A stretch of 64,000 nt of DNA from Elusimicrobiota bacterium (GCA_016788905.1 JAEURZ010000001.1:118944-182943); one strand, 5' to 3'. Positions 1,864-37,628 are shown, counted from the first letter of the stretch. The notes: generated from the letters alone by a model not told the origin. Translations and numbers: made by a program.

Positions 1864-2382
1864 TCAATTAAAATTCCATGTGGCATGCTTAACCCCAATT
1901 GCCAAAACGATGAGGGCCCAGACCAAAAACACCAGGGCGGTTCTCGATAATAATCGTGATTTATTAAATGGACCAAAGCGCCAGGCAACCCCATACGTCC
2001 CTGATAGTAAAATAAGTCCAACAGTAAGACGCCCCTCGCAATGTCGAAAACATTGAAACATTGAGAATTGCCTCCAAAGAAGAAGTGCCCCCATCAAGAG
2101 CCCCAGACTCATGACCACACGTAATGCCGGCTTGATCCATGACGGGTCCCATCGGACAAAAAGTATCGATTGAAAGAGCAACCCGGCAGCGAAGACTGGG
2201 ATGATCCAATGATGATGGAACTTGTTCAGGAAATAAGGAACGGTTCCTAGAAATAAAATCATGTTCGTAATTAAAACAGCCAGTCCTGGGATCACTTCTT
2301 TCCCTCGTTCTTGCAAGAGCCCTCCCCAAAGCGAAAACAATTCAATGGCGTTCTGAAGTGGAGGATACTGTATTCGGGACAA
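1864..2382 (-). CDS. hypothetical integral membrane protein
   Basis: 172-aa ORF with 4-5 predicted TM helices. No recognisable family. Confidence 0.5.
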   Translation of the reverse strand: MSRIQYPPLQNAIELFSLWGGLLQERGKEVIPGLAVLITNMILFLGTVPYFLNKFHHHWIIPVFAAGLLFQSILFVRWDPSWIKPALRVVMSLGLLMGALLLWRQFSMFQCFRHCEGRLTVGLILLSGTYGVAWRFGPFNKSRLLSRTALVFLVWALIVLAIGVKHATWNFN

Positions 2383-2582
2383 GGTTCACCATCTTTCCTC
2401 TCTGCCCGTGCGTGAGCCGCCACAGGGTGCCCGTGTAAAAGAATTCCCACGTAGGGAGAGTTTTTCTTTTCCCGTGCGGGGAGTCCTTGCGTATAAAATT
2501 TCCGATGGGGTTAACAAATTTCTTGGCCATGGGTTTGCCCTCCTGACTGGTTAGACGCCCGAAACTGAAAAAAGTTCCCCCC

Positions 2583-2638
2583 TTGACAAAAAATGGAAGT
2601 CGACATACAATGTGAGTGATTAATCACTAGCAAGGAGA
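2583..2638 (+). promoter_or_regulatory. sigma-70 promoter (TTGACA-N17-TACAAT), a perfect 14-bp palindromic operator (AGTGATTAATCACT, 2615-2628) and an RBS for the TetR gene
   Basis: TTGACA at 2583-2588, 17-nt spacer, TACAAT at 2606-2611. The palindrome sits at the +1 region. AGGAG at 2633-2637 lies 6 nt before the ATG at 2643. Confidence 0.6.
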
Positions 2639-2642
2639 AAAA

Positions 2643-3227
2643 ATGCACTTCATTGTGGAACAGTCTAAAGTTAAAACCATTTTGCCCAAGGTCATGCGGG
2701 CCGCTGTTCGCTTGTTTGTCGAAAAGGGAATTGATGGAACAACGACGAAAGACATCGCGTCCAAAAGCGGTGTTTCGGAAGGGGCTCTTTACCGACACTT
2801 TAAAAGTAAAGAGGACCTGGCCTACCATATTTTCGCCACACATGTGAATGAGTTCTCACATGAGTTGACAGCGCTTATTAACCGAGAATTGCCCGGCCGA
2901 GCCCAATTGGGCGCCTTTGTAGCGACCGCTTTTAAGACCTATGAAGAAGAAAGGGATTTGTTCACCTACCTTATCCTCTCAGAGCACAGGGAATTGGATA
3001 AATTCCCCTCCACGTTTAAACATCCAGGGCACGTGGTGGTGGACCTCATTAAAGATGGCCAAACCGCCAAAGCCTTTCGACCCATGGACCCCTTTATCGG
3101 GGGGTCTTTGATCCTGGGGGGAATCATTCGGATTTGTGTGGTTCGTTACCGTCAAGCAATTGGCCATGATTTACGCAAAGAGACAGAACCCGTCACGGAG
3201 TCCCTATGGCGCGCCCTAAAAAACTAA
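2643..3227 (+). CDS. TetR/AcrR family transcriptional regulator
   Basis: N-terminal TetR HTH signature (GTTTKDIASKSGVSEGALYRHFKSKEDL). 194 aa. Probably autoregulated through the palindrome overlapping its promoter. Confidence 0.85.
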   Translation: MHFIVEQSKVKTILPKVMRAAVRLFVEKGIDGTTTKDIASKSGVSEGALYRHFKSKEDLAYHIFATHVNEFSHELTALINRELPGRAQLGAFVATAFKTYEEERDLFTYLILSEHRELDKFPSTFKHPGHVVVDLIKDGQTAKAFRPMDPFIGGSLILGGIIRICVVRYRQAIGHDLRKETEPVTESLWRALKN

Positions 3228-4404: not shown

Positions 4405-6926
4405 GCCCGCTCATGCGGGTCATGGCCGGCTTCGTCGCTGGCACGGGGGCCCTCCTGGCGGGGATCCATACGCACAAACGCGGGTATTCTGTGACGGGGC
4501 AAACCTTGGGCGCTGCGGGATGCGCCATTCTTTACGCCAACACGTTTGCCGCCCACGCTCTTTATGGCCTTCTCAACGCTGAATCCGCCTTCGCTTTTAT
4601 GACGCTCGTGACAGCGGTGGCCTTCCTTTTGGCCATCCGGATGGACTCCCCGTATGTGGCGATCTTGGGGCTCCTCGGAGGATTCTTGACCCCGCCCCTG
4701 TTTTCAACTGGGGTGGACCAAGCCCTGGGGCTGTTCAGTTACGTGACCCTCCTCGACGTGGGGTTGGTGTTGGTGGCTCTCCGAAAACGATGGATGTATT
4801 TGATCTCCGCCGCAGCCCTGGGGACCGTCCTCATGCAAACAGGGTGGGCCCAGCAGTTTTTTGAAGCTTCCAAAATGACCACCGCGGCCAGTATTGTTCT
4901 TTGGTTCGCCGGCCTCTTTGCCGTGGCACGCCGGATGTCGGAAAAAACCGATCCCAACGATTCCCATTCTCTTCATTCAGCGGGGCTTCTGTCTCTGGTC
5001 GCGGTCGTGGGGATGGGATTCTTCGCGCTCAAAAATACGGCGGTGGCCGTCCAGCCCACCGTTCCATTTTCCGTCTTGATCCTGAGCAACATCCTTTTGG
5101 CGGGATTGGCCCTTCGCCACGAAAAGTTCCAAGGCTACCATGTCCTGGCGGGAGGGATCTCGTTTTTCAGTCTGATGATGTGGACGAACCAGTTCTTGTC
5201 CCCCGCGCTCCTGCCGCACGCTCTCCTGGTCATCCTTCTTCTCGGCGGGTGGCACGGCGCGTTCGCCGTGATCCTCCATCGTCGAGGTGGATCGTCCACC
5301 GCTGTGGCCCTGGGCCAGATCTACCCGGTGATCCTCCTGATTCCCGTCCTCCTCACGTTGACCCGGCAAACAGCTTCTCCCGTGTTTCTTTGGCCTGTGG
5401 CGTTTCTCTTGAACGGCGTCACCATTTTGGCCGCCCTGACCACAGGATTTTTCTGGGCCCTGCTGGGCGCCCTAGGCCTCAGCCTCCTCACCGCGTCTCT
5501 CTGGATGGGCCGTCTTTCCTCGGGGGACTTACCAAGCCTCCTTCTGGTGATCGGCGGAATAGCGGCTCTGTTTTTTGGGGCCGGACTGTGGTTCCTGAAA
5601 AGGAACGAAAGAACAAACCAAGAAGGATCTCCAAAGGAACAAAAAGCTTGGGCGCTCCCACCAGAATTGGCGGACACCCTTCCCGCTTTGGGATGCCTTC
5701 TGCCTTTCTTGCTCCTGGGGCAAGCGGCTGTCCATCTCAAACTGACCAATCCAGCTCCTGTTTTCGGGGTGGGCGCTCTCTTAATCCTTTTGCTCCTCAG
5801 CCTTGCGATTCGGCGCGGCGCACGGACAGGGATCCTGGTCCCCATGGGTCTGATCAGTATGGCCCTGCTTCAATTCGTCTGGCATAGAGAACTCTTTTCT
5901 CTCAGCGATCCGTGGGTCGTGTTGCCTTGGTACACAGGAACGTTGGCTGTCTTTTTAGCTTTACCTTTTCTTTCCAAATCGTTTGGGGCCCTGTTCGAAT
6001 CCTGGATGACCTCCGCCGCCGCAGGCCCCATCCTTTTCTTCTTTCTATACAAAACCTATTCCACCCTTTTCGGAACGAACACCCTAGGGGCCTTGCCAGC
6101 CGGATTGGCCGTCCTTTACTCCCTCTCTTTGTGGGAAATCATTCGCCATCCCTCGGAGAGCCTTCCTCGAAAACAAACCCTTCTGGCCGCGTTCGGGGGC
6201 GTCACCCTCTTCTTTATCAGCCTTATTTTTCCCCTCCAATTCGATCGGGAGTGGATTACTCTGGGATGGGCCCTGGAAGGGATGGCCCTGGTGTGGCTTT
6301 TCGGTCGGGTCCCTCACCCCGGACTGAAAGTGTGGGGAGGGACATTGCTCACCATCGCCTTTGTGCGGTTGGCCGCCAACCCCACCGTTTTCGCCTACCA
6401 TCCTCGTACGGGAACACCTTTCTTCAACTGGTATCTGTATGCGTATGGCGTTACAACGGTGTGCCTGTTGCTCGCGGCCCGCTTTTGGCAAACCTCGGCT
6501 GCGGAGAAGGGGGCGTCTTCGGACGAAACAAGGCCCGAAATTTCCTTCCGGTCAGGATTGAACGCCATGGGGATTGTCCTTCTATTCTTGCTCATGAACA
6601 TTCAAATCGCCGATTGGTTTAGCACCGGGACCACCCTCACCTTTAACCTGCGGGGCTCCCTCACGCAAGACATGAGCTATACCTTGGGATGGGGTCTCTT
6701 CGGCCTTGCCCTTTTAGTGGTCGGCCTTTGGAAAGACTCCCTCGGCGCGCGTCGCGCGAGTTTTGCCTTGCTCGCTGTCACGATTGGGAAACTCTTTCTC
6801 CACGATGTGTGGCGACTGACCCTTCTGTATCGCGCGGCAGCTTTTGTTGGGCTGGCGGTGGTTCTCATTCTTTCCTCTTTCCTTTATCAACGGTTCCTTC
6901 GGGGCCGGGAGGAGAAGAAACCATGA
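4254..6926 (+). CDS. DUF2339-like large polytopic membrane protein, main body (frameshifted relative to the N-terminal fragment)
   Basis: About 890 aa with more than 20 hydrophobic helices. An N-proximal ...WIGGFALFMGAAFFVKYSIDHSW... motif is typical of the DUF2339 family. The GTG at 4254 is only the ORF-finder start, and frame 0 is open back to 4176. Confidence 0.75.
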   Translation: MVQAPPSSGEIPTLDWDRFTGVKLFSWIGGFALFMGAAFFVKYSIDHSWVSPLMRVMAGFVAGTGALLAGIHTHKRGYSVTGQTLGAAGCAILYANTFAAHALYGLLNAESAFAFMTLVTAVAFLLAIRMDSPYVAILGLLGGFLTPPLFSTGVDQALGLFSYVTLLDVGLVLVALRKRWMYLISAAALGTVLMQTGWAQQFFEASKMTTAASIVLWFAGLFAVARRMSEKTDPNDSHSLHSAGLLSLVAVVGMGFFALKNTAVAVQPTVPFSVLILSNILLAGLALRHEKFQGYHVLAGGISFFSLMMWTNQFLSPALLPHALLVILLLGGWHGAFAVILHRRGGSSTAVALGQIYPVILLIPVLLTLTRQTASPVFLWPVAFLLNGVTILAALTTGFFWALLGALGLSLLTASLWMGRLSSGDLPSLLLVIGGIAALFFGAGLWFLKRNERTNQEGSPKEQKAWALPPELADTLPALGCLLPFLLLGQAAVHLKLTNPAPVFGVGALLILLLLSLAIRRGARTGILVPMGLISMALLQFVWHRELFSLSDPWVVLPWYTGTLAVFLALPFLSKSFGALFESWMTSAAAGPILFFFLYKTYSTLFGTNTLGALPAGLAVLYSLSLWEIIRHPSESLPRKQTLLAAFGGVTLFFISLIFPLQFDREWITLGWALEGMALVWLFGRVPHPGLKVWGGTLLTIAFVRLAANPTVFAYHPRTGTPFFNWYLYAYGVTTVCLLLAARFWQTSAAEKGASSDETRPEISFRSGLNAMGIVLLFLLMNIQIADWFSTGTTLTFNLRGSLTQDMSYTLGWGLFGLALLVVGLWKDSLGARRASFALLAVTIGKLFLHDVWRLTLLYRAAAFVGLAVVLILSSFLYQRFLRGREEKKP

Positions 6927-34264: not shown

Positions 34265-34588
34265 ATGATCACACTGACGGAAACCGCGGCAAAGAAAGTG
34301 AAAGATATTTTTACCGGGGACCCTTCTCTGGCCGGAAAATCCCTCCGGGTGGTGGTGGAGAAGGGGGGGTGCTCCAGTTACCAATACGGGTTTACCTTTG
34401 ACGATAAAAAAGAGGGGGACACGGAATTGGATCAAGCGGGAGTGAAACTTCTCGTGGATCCGCAGACCGCCGGACTGCTCACAGGGTCGGTGGTTGATTA
34501 CAAAGAAGATTTTTCGGGCGGCGGATTCGCCATCTCTAACCCCAACGCGAAATCTTCCTGTGGTTGTGGCAAATCCTTCAACGCCTAA
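34265..34588 (+). CDS. Fe-S cluster insertion/carrier protein, HesB/IscA/ErpA family
   Basis: 107 aa with the ..GGCSG.QY.. and C-terminal CGCGKSF cysteine motifs. Confidence 0.85.
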   Translation: MITLTETAAKKVKDIFTGDPSLAGKSLRVVVEKGGCSSYQYGFTFDDKKEGDTELDQAGVKLLVDPQTAGLLTGSVVDYKEDFSGGGFAISNPNAKSSCGCGKSFNA

Positions 34589-34922
34589 AAAAAATCTTTT
34601 CGAAATCACCGATCGGGCCGCGGCCCGCGCCCAGGTATTGCTCGCCGCCCGGAAACCCCAGGACCGCGCCCTCCGCGTTAAGGTCACGCCGGGCGGGTGT
34701 TCTGGATTCAGCTACAACCTGGACCCCTGGTCCGGACCGGCCCCAGCGGAAGACCATCGGGTGGATCTAGAAAATCTTACGGTTTACGTGGATAAAAAAA
34801 GTCTGCTCTTCCTGGCCGGCACAACCCTGGATTACGAGGACACCGTCTTTTCCCGCCGCTTCATTTTCAAAAACCCCAACGCGTCCACGTCCTGTTCGTG
34901 CGGAGAATCTTTCGCAGTATAA
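34587..34922 (+). CDS. second HesB/IscA-like protein (tandem paralog); start codon unclear
   Basis: HesB motifs (PGGCSGFSY ... C-terminal CSCGESF). The only in-frame ATG (34494) lies 95 nt inside the upstream gene. The homologous region begins around 34590 (KKNLFEITDRAAAR) with no canonical start codon. Confidence 0.6.
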   Translation, partial: KKNLFEITDRAAARAQVLLAARKPQDRALRVKVTPGGCSGFSYNLDPWSGPAPAEDHRVDLENLTVYVDKKSLLFLAGTTLDYEDTVFSRRFIFKNPNASTSCSCGESFAV

Positions 34923-34971: not shown

Positions 34972-35000
34972 TTGAATTAATAACCCTTAACGGGTATAAT
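34972..35000 (+). promoter_or_regulatory. sigma-70 promoter TTGAAT-N17-TATAAT for the hipB operon
   Basis: TTGAAT at 34972-34977, 17-nt spacer, TATAAT at 34995-35000, within an AT-rich 140-bp islet. Confidence 0.5.
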
Positions 35001-35050
35001 TAATAAGGTAATAAACCAAATAACTATTTTTTATTACGACAGATTATTTT

Positions 35051-35068
35051 TATACCCGGAAGGGGATA
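35051..35068 (+). promoter_or_regulatory. HipB-operator-like inverted repeat TATAC-N8-GGATA overlapping the hipB RBS
   Basis: One mismatch to the E. coli hipBA operator consensus TATCC-N8-GGATA. It overlaps the SD of hipB (ATG at 35070). Confidence 0.4.
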
Positions 35069-35069
35069 A

Positions 35070-35282
35070 ATGAAAAACAATATCTCAGAATTTGTGAAGA
35101 AAGAACGCAAGGAGTCGCGCCTGACTCAAATCGACCTGGCGAAAAAAGCTGGCGTGGGGCTACGGTTCCTTCGAGATTTGGAGCAGGGCAAACCCTCCCT
35201 TCGTATGGATACCACCAATAAAGTCCTCGTTCTTTTCGGAAAATGTCTCGGACCAACGGATCTCACGCGCCACGAGAATTGA
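35070..35282 (+). CDS. hipB: HipB-like XRE-family HTH transcriptional regulator / antitoxin component
   Basis: 70 aa with a Cro/C1-type HTH (SRLTQIDLAKKAGVGLRFLRDLEQGK). Immediately upstream of the HipA-derived genes. Confidence 0.8.
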   Translation: MKNNISEFVKKERKESRLTQIDLAKKAGVGLRFLRDLEQGKPSLRMDTTNKVLVLFGKCLGPTDLTRHEN

Positions 35283-35283
35283 C

Positions 35284-35625
35284 GTGATAGACAACGAACA
35301 GCGGGCCGCCGTTTTCGCATTTAACCAAAGGGCCGGTACCCTATCAAAAACGGCCCAGGGTTTTATTTTTGTTTACGAACCAACCTATTTAAAATCCCCG
35401 GAGGCTCACCCCATAAGTTTTTCACTCCCTCTTCGAGAAAAAGCGTATGAATGCCCCCGCCTTTTCTCTTTCTTTGACGGCCTTCTTCCTGAGGGCTGGC
35501 TCTTGGACCTCACGGCCAAAGCGGCCAAAATTGACAAAACCGACAAATTCAGGCTTCTATTGCACACGGGACGGGATCCTGTGGGTGCCGTAAGTGTGCG
35601 CCCGATAACTTACAATGAAAAATAA
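35284..35625 (+). CDS. hipS: HipS-like protein (stand-alone HipA N-terminal subdomain)
   Basis: 113 aa matching the HipA N-terminal (couple_hipA) domain (FFDGLLPEG...GRDPVGAVSV). GTG start 2 nt after the hipB stop. Confidence 0.75.
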   Translation: MIDNEQRAAVFAFNQRAGTLSKTAQGFIFVYEPTYLKSPEAHPISFSLPLREKAYECPRLFSFFDGLLPEGWLLDLTAKAAKIDKTDKFRLLLHTGRDPVGAVSVRPITYNEK

Positions 35626-36547
35626 TTGTCTGTCTTGCCTAAAACCGTCGGATAATAAAACGTACCACCCGAAATGCCTAAAGTCTCTTTTTGGGAAATC
35701 ACGCGTTCCCCTGATCCCCTTCGGCACCGCGGAGGTTCCGGGACAAGCCCTTAAAACGAACATGCGCATGTCCATATCGGGAATTCAAATGAAACTGTCC
35801 GTAAGGATTGATCCGGAAACCTGGAGAGTTGAAACCGTTTCAGAGGGAGGGACTCACATTTTGAAACCCGAACCCGGAACTTTCGCCGAACTCCCCCACA
35901 ATGAAAACCTCTGCATGAATATGGCGTCCACGTTGGGCTTAAATGTTCCACCGCACGGATTATTTGCAATGGCGGACGGGACCTTCTGCTACATCGTGAA
36001 AAGGTTCGATCGTCTGGAAAACGGAAAGAAGTTACCGAAAGAAACATTTTTTCAAATTTCCGGCCAAGAAAACAAATACGCTGGATCCTTGGAGAGCTTG
36101 GGGAAAATCATCCGCCTTCATGCCACCCGAACAGGTCTCGACGCCCTAGATTTTTTTGAGCGCGTTCTCTTCTGTTATTTAATTGGCAACGGCGACATGC
36201 ACCAAAAGAATTGGGCCCTCTTAACAGACCCCCAGAGGGTGATCAAACTGGCCCCTTGCTACGACTTTGTGTCGTCCAAAGTGTATCTCCCGGACGAATC
36301 AGACTCCGCTTTGACAGTCAACGGCAAACACCACGGACTCACACGGAAAGATTTTGAAGTCCTGGCGACATCACTCCGCATCGATCCGAAGGCCTCTCAG
36401 TTTACTTTTAAAAAATTCAGCTCGACGCTTGAAAGGCTCATCACATTCGCCCAGACATCAACGCTCTCCCCCGTCCTTCGCGAAAAACTTATCGGGCTTA
36501 TACAGGAACGCCACCGGCGACTGTTTACGACTTTGAAGGAAGGGTAG
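35615..36547 (+). CDS. hipT: HipT-like Ser/Thr kinase toxin (HipA core kinase domain lacking the N-subdomain)
   Basis: 310 aa with the HipA_C signatures SISGIQMKLSV (Gly-rich loop region) and catalytic GNGDMHQKNWALL. The ATG overlaps the hipS stop (ATGAAAAATAA). Confidence 0.8.
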   Translation: MKNNCLSCLKPSDNKTYHPKCLKSLFGKSRVPLIPFGTAEVPGQALKTNMRMSISGIQMKLSVRIDPETWRVETVSEGGTHILKPEPGTFAELPHNENLCMNMASTLGLNVPPHGLFAMADGTFCYIVKRFDRLENGKKLPKETFFQISGQENKYAGSLESLGKIIRLHATRTGLDALDFFERVLFCYLIGNGDMHQKNWALLTDPQRVIKLAPCYDFVSSKVYLPDESDSALTVNGKHHGLTRKDFEVLATSLRIDPKASQFTFKKFSSTLERLITFAQTSTLSPVLREKLIGLIQERHRRLFTTLKEG

Positions 36548-37628
36548 GGGTGTCTGGGGAAGGACCAATGGACGGCGCGGTGTTGGCGATGGTTGAAAGT
36601 TTGTCTTGAAACCGTTCCAACCGGCGACCAGCGTCGTCGTATTTTGTCTTAGCGTTGGACAGATGGCGCCCCACCAAATCAAAATCTTCGGCAAATCGTG
36701 CCAAATTCTCTCTTAATCGCCCGAGATCTTCCATGATCCGCCGGGCGTTTTCCTCAATTTGGAAACCCCGCAACCCCAGCGCGATCACCTGAAGATATGC
36801 GTAGATACTCCCCGGAGAAACAGGGACAACCCGACGGCGGAGAGCGTATTCCATCAAGGCCCCCTCTTCTCCCTCGTCTTTCACGATGCATTCGTAATAC
36901 ACGTTCTCGGCCGGAATATAGAGAAGCGCAAAATCAAAGGTGCCTTCGTCCGGAAGAATATATTTTGACGCCACCGCGTCCACGTGCCTGCGCAAATCCG
37001 CCCCGAACTTTTTGCGGAGCACCCGCCGTTCTTCATCGGTGGTGGCGTCCAGCATTTTCCGAAAGTTTTCCAGGGGAAACTTTGCGTCGACAGGGACCAA
37101 CCGTCCCCCCAACCGGATCACCGCATCAACTGTTTCGCGTGTTTTAAACGTGTGTTGCAGTTCCACGTTCTGGGCCGGAAGGATTTGCCGCAGCAGATCC
37201 GCAAGAAGGAATTCCCCCAAGCCTCCGCGAAGTTTCGGCGCCTTCAAAATATCCTGAAGACTGGAAATGTCCTTGCCGATCTCAAAGATTCGATCCGACG
37301 CTTGGCCCAGAACCCCCAAGCTTTTTTGAACTTCCCCCACCACTCGGGTGGCACTGTCCAGGCGATCCCCCACAGATTTCTGGCTTTCTTGAACCCGTTG
37401 TCCAACGGTTTCCAACTGGCGATTGACTTCAGCGCCTAAACGCATGAGGCGATCTGTCACAAGATCGGTTTGGGTTTGGGCGGATTCCGCCGACTGGCGG
37501 CGAAGGGCGTCCATTTGCTGTTGAAGAAGAAGGAGAGAGCCCCCAGTGGACTTGGCCCTCCAGACAACCAGCAGGGCGCCCAGAACCCCAAGGATCAGAC
37601 CGATCAAAACAAGGAGGGTCGTATTCAC
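36525..37628 (-). CDS. rmuC: DNA recombination protein RmuC
   Basis: N-terminal TM helix, a long coiled-coil and a RmuC C-terminal domain. Convergent with hipT and overlapping it by 23 nt. Confidence 0.8.
   Translation of the reverse strand: MNTTLLVLIGLILGVLGALLVVWRAKSTGGSLLLLQQQMDALRRQSAESAQTQTDLVTDRLMRLGAEVNRQLETVGQRVQESQKSVGDRLDSATRVVGEVQKSLGVLGQASDRIFEIGKDISSLQDILKAPKLRGGLGEFLLADLLRQILPAQNVELQHTFKTRETVDAVIRLGGRLVPVDAKFPLENFRKMLDATTDEERRVLRKKFGADLRRHVDAVASKYILPDEGTFDFALLYIPAENVYYECIVKDEGEEGALMEYALRRRVVPVSPGSIYAYLQVIALGLRGFQIEENARRIMEDLGRLRENLARFAEDFDLVGRHLSNAKTKYDDAGRRLERFQDKLSTIANTAPSIGPSPDTPTLPSKS

Follow-up and report, generated by a model that had tools for sequence, protein, structure and literature searches.

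The three genes at 35070-36547 very probably form a type II toxin-antitoxin operon of the HipBST family, tripartite, intact and fixed in the chromosome, the genome being most likely that of a member of the Elusimicrobiota (Table 1; positions are those of the window, i.e. the whole 64-kb stretch of DNA that was analysed). This family was recently defined as a variant of the classic persistence module HipBA (Vang Nielsen 2019; clade III of Gerdes 2021). Experimental precedents exist in E. coli and Legionella (PMC6581861, PMC10627512, PMC9325769, PMC10653801), and the two systems studied in depth disagree on the details of neutralisation and on the target. The present module is an ordinary further member of this family, known since 2019, and as an ordinary chromosomal toxin-antitoxin module it brings no conceptual change. 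The clade that it represents is large and uncharacterised and comes mostly from Elusimicrobia (629 related proteins were found, of which the best 120 were at 49-100% identity). Below, proteins of Legionella pneumophila and of enteropathogenic E. coli O127:H6 are marked (Lp) and (Ec), respectively.

Table 1. Features of the HipBST-type operon and its flanks
Feature	Position	Strand	Description
Predicted sigma-70-type promoter	34972-35000	+	TTGAAT, 17-nt spacer, TATAAT; consensus scan 10/12
Putative HipB operator 1	34979-34999	.	AATAACCCTTAACGGGTATAA; imperfect palindrome; right half-site GGGTATAA overlaps the -10 box
Putative HipB operator 2	35050-35069	.	TTATACCCGGAAGGGGATAA; palindrome TTATxCCC-N4-GGGxATAA; lies over the hipB ribosome-binding site, directly next to the ATG
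hipB	35070-35282	+	ATG start, 70 aa; XRE-type helix-turn-helix, predicted autorepressor of the operon
hipS	35284-35625	+	GTG start, 113 aa; stand-alone homologue of HipA N-subdomain 1, predicted antitoxin
HipS Glu-x-Trp wedge	35488-35502	+	P69-E70-G71-W72-L73; W72 aligns with I65 of HipS(Lp)
hipT	35615-36547	+	ATG start, 310 aa; HipA-type Ser/Thr kinase core without N-subdomain 1, predicted toxin
HipT CxxC-x9-HxxC motif	35627-35677	+	CLSCLKPSDNKTYHPKC, residues 5-21; N-terminal mini-domain, predicted zinc site
HipT Gly-rich (P-) loop	35768-35794	+	M52-S53-I54-S55-G56-I57-Q58-M59-K60; two predicted autophosphorylation serines
HipT RxDR motif	36002-36013	+	R130-F-D132-R133; all four residues invariant in the homologue alignment
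HipT catalytic motif	36185-36211	+	G191-N-G-D194-M-H196-Q-K-N199; G191 to H196, K198 and N199 invariant
HipT Mg2+-binding motif	36257-36268	+	C215-Y216-D217-F218; Y216 and D217 invariant
Convergent hipT/rmuC overlap	36525-36547	.	rmuC = 36525-37628, minus strand; 23-nt overlap also in L085

Organisation and family membership

The coordinates, lengths and start codons of the three co-directional, coupled genes agreed base for base with the initial annotation, and the peptides by which it had recognised HipS and HipT (FFDGLLPEG, GRDPVGAVSV, SISGIQMKLSV and GDMHQKNWALL) were all located. The hipB stop codon (TGA, 35280-35282) is followed by a single spacer base (C, 35283) and by the GTG of hipS at 35284, so that the distance of 2 nt given earlier is right if the count begins at the final base of the TGA (the gap itself is 1 nt). 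Upstream of the conserved region, the hipS frame has no other start codon than this GTG, and the protein is homologous to HipS proteins from its residue 6 on. In both the ORF list and the raw sequence, the hipS stop and the hipT start share the 11 nt described before (ATGAAAAATAA, 35615-35625), with the hipT ATG inside the final 11 nt of hipS. From the ORF coordinates, the 3' end of hipT overlaps the 3' end of the convergent rmuC by 23 nt; no terminator for the operon was found, because the operon ends within rmuC.

HipS matched Couple_hipA (E = 2.6e-26, residues 9-105 of 113) and TIGR03071 (E = 1.2e-27), HipT matched HipA_C (E = 2.1e-43, residues 52-264), and HipB matched HTH_3 (E = 1.8e-6) and TIGR03070 couple_hipB (E = 3.8e-20; 71.6 bits against a cut-off of 71.65, i.e. 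0.05 bits short of it). Judged by these profile scores, the domain assignments of the three proteins lie far beyond chance. HipS aligns to HipA residues 7-105 and HipT, from its residue 9 onward, to HipA from residue 103 onward, and therefore the break falls, as had been supposed, at the boundary of N-subdomain 1 (~103-105 of HipA). The module departs from canonical single-chain HipBA in that an ORF of its own, in a different frame, encodes N-subdomain 1; in all close relatives, too, N-subdomain 1 is separate. The features of the HipBST family that can be tested on sequence (gene order, coupling, domains, split point and motifs) were all found, which supports the proposed family assignment at that level.

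The hipB-hipS-hipT order is common to the module and to the HipBST system of E. coli O127 (PDB 7AB3, 7AB4, 7AB5), to which the initial annotation had matched it; the likeness in organisation stands, but the closest characterised relative is HipBST of Legionella. Among known structures, HipT best matched HipT(Lp) (3.7e-44, 154 bits), followed by the more distant HipT(Ec) (1.7e-25, 93 bits; ~25% identity) and, weakly, by HipA of E. coli K-12 (E ~4e-10, 42 bits). The AlphaFold2 model of HipT (pLDDT 91.6) gave Foldseek TM values of 0.89 to HipT(Lp) (7wcf), 0.84 to HipT(Ec) (7ab4_C) and 0.69 to HipA; in pairwise scores, by both sequence bits and fold TM, HipT is nearer to the characterised HipT kinases than to HipA. 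For HipB, the best solved structure was HipB(Lp) (8ezt, E = 2e-7). For HipS, the best PDB match was HI0666, the HipS of Haemophilus influenzae (7czo, 1.4e-15), narrowly ahead of HipS(Lp) (7vkb_B, 5e-15).

Age of the hipS/hipT split

Comparison of related loci argues that the division into hipS and hipT is ancestral and not a frameshift. In a sample from the genome collection, hipS and hipT were separate at every locus down to 32% identity (40 loci, from Elusimicrobia, Verrucomicrobia, Omnitrophota and others), most of them with hipB and in the gene order found here, and fused forms were first seen at ≤34% identity. The junction between the two genes measured -11, -4, -1, +1 or +4 nt among related loci. 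The sister lineage L085 (HipT 80% identical) has the same split with the same -11 overlap at the same chromosomal site, and this overlap was also found in six loci at 52-56% identity. An identical HipT in the same gene context was present on five independent metagenome contigs, on three of which hipS was fully readable and on two partly. Against L085, dN/dS was 0.12 for hipB, 0.15 for hipS and 0.15 for hipT, which indicates purifying selection.

That the two HipA-derived ORFs might instead be a recently frameshifted, decaying hipA, or an error of sequencing or assembly, would agree with their joint length (113 + 310 aa, about one HipA), with their abutting in different frames, and with the gene callers on public contigs, which often omit hipS or shorten hipT. 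The shortened calls, however, are artefacts of the gene callers, the ORF being open over its whole length. Against this reading also speak the five independent contigs, the overlap of the same length in L085 and the six more distant loci, the dN/dS of both genes, the split state of all relatives down to 32% identity, and the solved HipS and HipT structures, which match the two ORFs end to end. The frameshift-artefact reading is refuted by these comparative data, and the probability that we leave to it is vanishingly small; the earlier statement that the split is unlikely to be a simple frameshift was borne out, no joined gene being found in any close relative.

Genomic setting

Between 34923 and 36547 the GC content was 0.476, and the 147-nt intergenic leader had 0.313, whereas each 10-kb flank had 0.55; the module was among the lowest 2.4% of windows of the same size. 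The AT-rich islet that had been noted thus exists, although the difference is modest; the horizontal acquisition with which it had been called consistent, if it took place, was not recent. L085 carries the module at the same iscA-rmuC site with dS like that of the flanking genes, and the module is therefore regarded as old at this site despite its low GC, so that any horizontal acquisition would, by this comparison, be at most ancient. In a third lineage, L034, an internal deletion has removed the module and left a remnant at this place. The neighbours are fmt, def, two iscA-like genes, rmuC, yjbQ and genes of a sulfate/molybdate-type transporter. An RmuC scan of metagenome contigs (73 loci, with the window neighbours mapped) showed no empty site or insertion scar, and the def/fmt/iscA-rmuC synteny was kept at none of the 73 RmuC loci, in which RmuC identity was ≤60%. 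No integrase or transposase genes adjoin the module, no convincing direct repeats flank it, and the 64-kb window contains no tRNA genes and, at the gathering thresholds of Rfam, no RNA family.

Predicted promoter and putative operators

A TTGACA-like box followed after 17 nt by GGGTATAAT/GGGTATAGT lies at the place of the predicted promoter in related loci. In putative operator 1, 8 of 11 pairs match, and it forms an inverted repeat with operator 2; three of the six matches to the half-site TTATMCCC in the window fall within 34992-35069. The hexamer TATACC/GGTATA was enriched ~104-fold in the 160 nt upstream of hipB of 17 related loci. Operator 1 is kept in the alignment with L085 and L034, operator 2 is nearly identical there, and palindromes like operator 2 occur ~20 nt ahead of the hipB start in L014-L017, L019 and L020. 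The operators of HipB(Lp) are likewise inverted repeats; they overlap the promoter and are situated shortly upstream of the hipB start (PMC10653801). By analogy with HipB(Lp), we infer that HipB binds the TATACC/GGTATA operators. HipB of E. coli K-12 is a helix-turn-helix autorepressor on palindromic operators, as predicted here.

Kinase motifs and the HipS wedge

The catalytic residues of HipT, the lack of which would have spoken against a toxin, are complete: GNGDMHQKN, CYDF and the Gly-rich loop are present and invariant, and S53, G56, Q58, K60, K84, R130, D132, R133, D194, H196, N199 and D217 show no exception in the HipT alignment. The Gly-rich loop serines of HipT(Ec), S57 and S59, stand opposite S53 and S55 in the alignment, so that the dual-serine loop S57-I-S59 corresponds to S53-I-S55 here; D194 aligns with D210 (in GNNDMHLRN), which is catalytic in HipT(Ec), and D217 with D233 (in VYDF), the D233Q variant of which is inactive (PMC10627512). 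The RxDR motif holds the phosphoserine in HipT(Lp) (PMC10627512), whose loop is S-V-Q with one phosphoserine, whereas that of the present HipT is S-I-S; K-12 HipA, which shares the kinase fold and the catalytic motifs, is inactivated by phosphorylation of Ser150.

E70-G-W72 of HipS corresponds to Glu63-x-Trp65 of HipS(Ec), in which W65 is essential for neutralisation (PMC10627512). The equivalence of W72 and W65 comes from the alignment to HipS(Lp), which has Ile65/Met66 where the present HipS has Trp72, together with the statement of Lin et al. that the I65 position of HipS(Lp) is the W65 site of HipS(Ec); the HipS(Ec) structure itself ranked 11th among the matches. In the Elusimicrobia clade EGW is invariant, and it occurs together with Ser-x-Ser loops of HipT. 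The module has both features of the E. coli sub-type, E70-G-W72 in HipS and S53-I-S55 in HipT, and the pair co-varies across clades.

Comparison with characterised systems

HipBST of Legionella pneumophila (Lpg2368-2370; PDB 7VKB, 7VKC, 7WCF, 8EZR, 8EZS, 8EZT) is the best characterised match to the module as a whole, with proteins of 72, 102 and ~312 aa against 70, 113 and 310 aa here. Its genes also overlap tightly, but by 4 bp and not 11 nt, and the identity is only ~31-34%. HipT(Ec) has insertions in loops proposed to bind the target, where the alignment with the present HipT shows gaps, and, compared with the 70-aa HipB, the DNA-binding helix-turn-helix of HipB(Ec), at residues 62-83, is ~45 residues more distant from the N-terminus. 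HI0666 has the PEGW motif in common with the present HipS; its structure is of isolated HipS alone, and the system that it comes from is one of the E. coli-type HipBST group, with HipT toxicity rescued by TrpS. In K-12 HipBA (HipA of 440 aa; PDB 3DNT, 3TPD and others), by contrast, HipA is one chain, HipB serves as the antitoxin and GltX is the target. On sequence grounds, the module mixes both HipBST types, being nearer to Legionella overall and of the E. coli type in its Trp and its Ser-Ile-Ser loop. This combination of a Legionella-like backbone with an E. coli-type Trp wedge and dual-serine loop in one module would make it a useful third reference for what decides mechanism and target.

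Proposed mechanism and role

For the present module we consider that the single promoter would drive hipB-hipS-hipT, and that the 1-nt gap and the 11-nt overlap would couple translation and give a fixed ratio of the three proteins. A HipB dimer would sit on the two TATACCC-N4/5-GGGTATA-type operators (one at the -10 box, the other at the ribosome-binding site) and repress its own operon, and HipT or the HipS-HipT complex probably docks on HipB. HipS is predicted to sit on the N-lobe of HipT with Trp72 of Glu70-Gly-Trp72 inserted beside the Gly-rich loop, and to hold this loop ejected and inactive, which would make HipS, not HipB, the antitoxin. HipT freed of HipS would autophosphorylate Ser53 and/or Ser55, and may stop growth by phosphorylating a translation factor that is essential, an aminoacyl-tRNA synthetase being the most plausible. 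Toxicity of HipT, neutralisation by HipS and DNA binding by HipB are thus presumed for this module from its likeness to the characterised ones; the conserved Trp72 wedge and the purifying selection lend indirect support to toxicity and its neutralisation by HipS. TrpS, mentioned earlier as the target of HipT(Ec), is not assignable to the present kinase, because it was shown for E. coli-type HipT only and the target of HipT(Lp) differs (PMC10653801).

The same biochemistry might serve mainly to defend against phage in the manner of abortive infection, or to stabilise a genomic island, instead of growth control linked to stress or persistence. Phage defence is a role of many type II toxin-antitoxin modules, the GC of the module is low compared with its flanks, and HipT and HipS weakly match the PADLOC phage-defence-candidate families PDC-M03A (8e-11) and its partner PDC-M03B (2e-3). 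However, these matches are confined to the catalytic core in HipT (residues 96-221) and to residues 17-65 of HipS, are far weaker than the matches to HipT, and indicate a distant relationship and not membership of PDC-M03. Moreover, no other defence or mobile-element genes lie beside the module, it is stably inherited at one chromosomal site, and no phage-defence phenotype is reported in the consulted HipBST papers; we regard such a main role as unlikely. A domesticated system, in which HipT is a non-toxic regulatory Ser/Thr kinase with HipS as its regulatory subunit and HipB as a transcription factor, would fit the retention of the module at one site with synonymous divergence like that of its housekeeping neighbours, and HipBST(Lp) is, according to PMC10653801, unusually conserved across Legionella. 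Domestication is nevertheless more improbable still, given that all toxicity-linked residues of HipT are kept, that L034 lost the module by internal deletion, as is typical of dispensable toxin-antitoxin modules, that the dN/dS of the module (0.12-0.15) is above that of the flanking housekeeping genes (0.04-0.11), and that both characterised homologues are growth-inhibitory. A growth-inhibiting HipBST toxin-antitoxin operon remains our preferred interpretation.

A conserved Cys/His motif in the HipT mini-domain

HipT, like HipT(Ec), has an N-terminal mini-domain that HipA lacks, and to which the literature assigns no role. In the present HipT it carries a CxxC-x9-HxxC motif, which was found in 109 of 112 full-length near homologues, with C5, C8, H18 and C21 invariant in 25 of 25 aligned homologues. 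At the aligned ligand positions (C8, H18 and C21), HipT(Lp) and HipT(Ec) have other residues (YSxxGL against YHxxCL in the clade of the present HipT, which is mostly Elusimicrobia and in which the motif is invariant), the Legionella protein having YSQRGL where the present one has YHPKCL and the E. coli protein Ser and Gly at H18 and C21, with C5 and C8 outside the HipT(Ec) alignment, which begins at residue 12; of the four ligands, three or more are substituted in the two structurally solved HipTs. In the AlphaFold2 model, the motif region (pLDDT 85-96) has a beta bridge between residues 4 and 11 and a helix at residues 19-26, with the first ligand pair within the stretch bounded by the beta bridge and the second at the start of the helix. 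In the treble-clef and zinc-knuckle motifs with which this was compared, the first of the two Cys/His pairs sits on a beta-hairpin knuckle and the second where a helix begins, around a bound metal.

The motif is kept in uncharacterised fused HipA-like kinases of ~450 aa from Bdellovibrionota/Oligoflexia and relatives (L030, L033, L037, L039, L042-L044, L046, L047 and L049), the nearest single-chain relatives at 30-34% identity, which may be the 'HipBA(Bu)' type of Lin et al. These have an S-I-S loop (S-V-S in L049) and, in most cases, hipB upstream, and their CxxC...HxxC is placed as it is here, where the HipS-like domain gives way to the kinase core. They differ in that the HipS-like domain is covalently joined and the spacer between the ligand pairs is 5-17 residues; in the present module, the break lies ~5-8 residues ahead of the first Cys of the motif.

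We tentatively read the Cys2-His-Cys motif as a zinc-binding site, with slightly less than even confidence, and as a candidate function for the mini-domain. If zinc is bound, the site would be directly upstream of the Gly-rich loop. It could then link activation of the toxin or release of HipS to metal or redox status, a kind of trigger so far undescribed in Hip kinases; such a site would, in addition, show precisely where hipA was divided, or where hipS and hipT were joined. Zinc or cysteine in a relevant sense was not found in the main HipBST papers (a wider word search was swamped by zinc-finger papers), and no earlier description of the conserved four-residue motif was found.

No Pfam match to HipT residues 1-51 was obtained, and a search with residues 1-52 against 1.84 billion representative proteins gave just nine matches, four of which were N-terminal fragments of HipT or HipT itself. 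The long multi-repeat matches P0121 and P0127 were rejected as FG-GAP/VCBS-like repeat proteins that match spuriously on 'HPRFLADxTGxGRADIVGFG'. A multi-stretch pattern like that of P0121/P0127 was also seen in P0123 and P0128, and P0122 was without a scored stretch. Residues 4-28 of Lpg2370 were earlier likened to the RING ligase FANCL, a likeness that was rejected by Zhen et al.

Identity of the module and position of the split

The module is a genuine, intact HipBST operon of an already known family and no new kind of system. The three co-directional genes were reproduced exactly, coordinates included, as described in the initial annotation, and all of the peptide motifs quoted there were found; the HipBST reading is supported by the genes, domains, PDB matches, catalytic residues and split relatives.

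Features of the hipBST module and its surroundings (genes of the module checked in the ORF listing and in the nucleotide sequence)
Feature	Position	Strand or place	Remarks
fmt, def, two iscA-like genes		upstream of module	housekeeping
Tandem iscA/erpA-like (Fe-S_biosyn) genes (the two iscA-like genes above)	34265-34922	directly upstream of module	
Predicted promoter, TTGAAT-17-TATAAT	34972-35000	leader	promoter-like sequence
Imperfect palindrome AATAACCCTTAACGGGTATAA	34979-34999	leader	right end inside -10 box
Imperfect palindrome TTATACCCGGAAGGGGATAA	35050-35069	leader	covers ribosome-binding site
hipB-like	35070-35282	+	ATG start, 70 aa
hipS-like	35284-35625	+	GTG start, 113 aa
hipT-like	35615-36547	+	ATG start, 310 aa
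Overlap of hipT and rmuC	36525-36547		last 23 nt of hipT
rmuC		downstream of module	convergent; overlaps hipT 3' end by 23 nt
yjbQ, transporter genes		downstream, after rmuC	

The Pfam assignments were HTH_3 for HipB (1.8e-6), Couple_hipA for HipS (2.6e-26, residues 9-105), and HipA_C for HipT (2.1e-43, residues 52-264). With NCBIfam, HipB scored 71.6 bits with couple_hipB (TIGR03070), marginally below the cut-off of 71.65, and HipS scored 96 bits with couple_hipA (TIGR03071). The proteins were compared with all PDB sequences, and the top matches of all three were HipBST components: HipT and HipB matched those of Legionella pneumophila (HipT(Lp), 3.7e-44; HipB(Lp), 2e-7), and HipS matched HI0666 of Haemophilus (1.4e-15), followed by HipS(Lp) (5e-15). 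The E. coli O127 proteins came next (HipT(Ec), 1.7e-25; HipS(Ec), 4e-11), and single-chain HipA ranked last (approximately 4e-10). The likeness to E. coli O127 that had been proposed holds for the HipBST type, but among characterised systems that of Legionella is the nearest. The AlphaFold2 model of HipT, built with 25 homologues (pLDDT 91.6, pTM 0.90), was superposed on HipT(Lp), HipT(Ec) and HipA with TM scores of 0.89, 0.84 and 0.69, respectively. HipS was aligned with residues 7-105 of HipA, and HipT from residue 9 onward with HipA from residue 103 onward; the break therefore lies at the N-subdomain-1 boundary, a point that the initial annotation had proposed for checking.

The catalytic residues, the lack of which the initial annotation had named as a refutation, were all present. 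In an alignment of 25 HipT homologues (51-70% identity), the Gly-rich loop (S53, G56, Q58, K60), K84 (the lysine of ILKP), the RxDR motif (R130, D132, R133), the catalytic motif G191-N-G-D194-M-H196 with K198 and N199, and the Mg2+ motif (Y216, D217) were invariant. In the HMMER alignment to 7AB3/7AB4, S53/S55, D194 and D217 correspond to S57/S59, D210 and D233 of HipT(Ec), the roles of which have been described (PMC10627512).

Split genes and the frameshift alternative

The TGA of hipB (35280-35282) is separated by one base from the GTG of hipS, and no other in-frame start codon precedes the conserved region of HipS, where homology with solved structures of the family sets in at residue 6. 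The hipT ATG falls within the final 11 nt of hipS (ATGAAAAATAA). A good Shine-Dalgarno sequence precedes hipB (GGAAGGGG), and those of hipS and hipT are weak or absent, which fits translational coupling.

The possibility that hipS and hipT are a frameshifted hipA, which the initial annotation had already thought unlikely, was rejected. Identical HipT proteins in the same gene context were found on five contigs (four from Logan, one from JGI); three of these carry hipS in full, and on the other two the contig ends within it. A HipT profile scan of 185,579 species genomes yielded 80 loci, of which all stop-to-stop ORFs were translated and searched with the three window proteins. A separate hipS lay directly upstream of hipT in every locus down to 32% identity (40 loci: Elusimicrobia, Obscuribacter, Omnitrophota, Krumholzibacteriia, Fibrobacteria, Verrucomicrobia/Opitutae, and Phycisphaerales), with the sole exception of a deletion remnant; hipB was also present in most of the 40, and the first single-chain proteins appeared at 34% identity or less. 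The junctions among the relatives were -11, -4, -1, +1 or +4 nt, and the -11 overlap of the window recurred in six loci (52-56% identity). In the sister lineage (L085), whose HipT is 80% identical, the overlap is the same and hipT is open throughout, and the Nei-Gojobori dN/dS between it and the window was 0.12 for hipB, 0.15 for hipS and 0.15 for hipT. Shorter public hipT calls (252 and 261 aa) were start-codon artefacts. In another Elusimicrobia locus (L006), hipB and hipS are uncoupled by an insert of about 313 bp (5357-5669), which is MITE-like, with long terminal inverted repeats (CTAGTGCTCCGACCGGCTCATAACCGGGG ... CCCCGGTTATGAGCCGGTCGGAGCACTAG).

Neutralisation sub-type and target

P69-E70-G71-W72 of HipS aligns with P62-E63-G64-I65 of HipS(Lp), in which I65/M66 occupy the site of W65 of HipS(Ec) (Lin et al.); W65 wedges by the Gly-rich loop, and HipS(Ec) cannot act as antitoxin without it (PMC10627512). 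Among the collected loci, EGW in HipS was paired with Ser/Thr at the third position of the HipT loop (SIS, SLS, AVT, ALT), and EG with V, L, I, A, G, P or S in the Trp position was paired with S-I/V-Q loops, that of Legionella included. The module therefore combines a Legionella-like backbone with the wedge and dual-serine loop shared with E. coli O127. As for the TrpS target named in the initial annotation, TrpS is phosphorylated by HipT(Ec), but this is not transferable to the module; neither TrpS nor GltX rescues cells from HipT(Lp). An aminoacyl-tRNA synthetase would be the default guess here, from family precedent.

Promoter and operators

The leader before hipB is 147 nt long (GC 0.31), and its two palindromes are related to each other; three of the six TTATMCCC matches in the window fall inside one 78-nt stretch of it. 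The same upstream design was found in related Elusimicrobia loci, with, for example, TTGACA-N17-GGGTATAAT, TATACCC-N4-GGGTATA palindromes at distances of approximately 100 nt and 20 nt from the start of hipB, on its upstream side, and CGGGTATA half-sites in arrays. In 17 loci, TATACC/GGTATA occurred 53 times in the 2,655 nt upstream of hipB versus 31 in the other 161,764 nt (approximately 104-fold enrichment). The inverted-repeat operators bound by HipB(Lp) overlap the promoter of its gene and are placed 24 nt ahead of the start codon; HipT(Lp) joins the HipB-DNA complex (PMC10653801). From the leader palindromes, their recurrence and this precedent, we infer with good support that HipB represses its own operon. 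In the Verrucomicrobia clade the palindrome is another one (TTACCGC-N4-GCGGTAA), which would be expected of operators that co-evolve with HipB and suggests that the operator specificity of HipB differs by clade. Two or three copies, about 70 nt apart, lie upstream of hipB in L026-L031, L036, L040 and L058 (Verrucomicrobia/Opitutae HipBST with an S-I-Q HipT loop and HipS without the Trp).

HipT's N-terminal mini-domain

Residues 1-41 of HipT(Ec) form a mini-domain "of unknown significance" (eLife paper). In the module, residues 5-21 (CLSCLKPSDNKTYHPKC) carry C5, C8, H18 and C21, which were invariant in the 25-sequence alignment and kept in 109 of the 112 near homologues of full length; the other three resemble truncated gene calls. 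The stretch was modelled at pLDDT 85-96 with a beta bridge (residues 4/11) and a helix (residues 19-26), a predicted layout that corresponds to a zinc knuckle with ligands carried on a helix. In HipT(Lp), C8, H18 and C21 are replaced by Tyr, Ser and Gly (YSQRGL versus YHPKCL), C5 being outside the alignment; HipT(Ec) has Ser and Gly in place of H18 and C21, and its alignment, beginning at residue 12, leaves C5/C8 uncovered. The Verrucomicrobia S-I-Q clade is without the motif, whereas the nearest fused HipA-like kinases (about 450 aa, Bdellovibrionota/Oligoflexia) keep it, with a spacer of 5-17 residues, after the HipS-like domain and before the core. We predict from sequence and model that the motif binds zinc. 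No discussion of zinc or cysteine was found in the main HipBST papers, and this Cys2-His-Cys motif may be the only new feature of the module. Two long FG-GAP/VCBS-like repeat proteins (P0121, P0127), which came up with HipT residues 1-52 as query through a repeated HPRFLADxTGxGRADIVGFG unit resembling HPKCLKSLFGKSRVPLIPFG, were judged spurious as relatives (compositional similarity).

Genomic setting

The AT-rich islet among housekeeping genes was confirmed: the GC of the module is 0.476 versus 0.55 in the flanks (10 kb on either side), within the lowest 2.4% of same-size windows. This composition supports a foreign origin, in keeping with the earlier proposal of horizontal acquisition, but the module is not recent: L085 has the module at the same site (identity 77-83% for module and 85-94% for flanking proteins), and dS between the two was 0.74-1.03 in the module and 0.58-1.13 in the flanks. 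Acquisition, if read so, should be read as ancient. The named relatives are nearly all Elusimicrobia MAGs, which makes that phylum the most likely source of the window; other Elusimicrobia hipBST copies lie in unrelated gene contexts, and no empty site was found among metagenome contigs searched with RmuC. A third lineage (L034; Elusimicrobiota MAG EBPR_ori4bin.9, JAYRXX010000040.1, 900-1500) has a decayed copy of this locus, an internal-deletion remnant. Both iscA genes (iscA1, iscA2) and the promoter and operators remain; hipB breaks off after roughly 48 codons and runs straight into the final 117 codons of hipT (from GNGDMH), so that hipS and the kinase N-lobe are missing. Downstream, other genes stand in place of rmuC, one of them an IS200/RAYT-like transposase ORF of 332 aa (2054-3052, minus strand).

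No terminator-like site was found between hipT and rmuC; therefore, transcription of each would enter the other. L085 keeps the same 23-nt overlap. It also has, between iscA2 and the hipB promoter, an extra GC-rich, MITE-like insert of about 215 bp (5939-6153) with inverted repeats of 24 nt at its ends (TGGTATCTCTTTAGCGCTCTGAAG / CTTCAGAGGGCTAAAGAGACTCCA); the window is without this insert. The iscA/erpA-like pair is called publicly as 107 and 120 aa with an overlap of 29 nt, which lengthens if the longest ORF of the second gene (142 aa) is taken; a 42-nt repeat encoding the C-terminal Cys motif is common to both 3' ends. Finally, HipT had a weak match, confined to the catalytic core, to the PADLOC phage-defence candidate PDC-M03A (8e-11), and HipS had one to PDC-M03B (2e-3); these two candidates appear to be a distant HipS/HipT-like pair.
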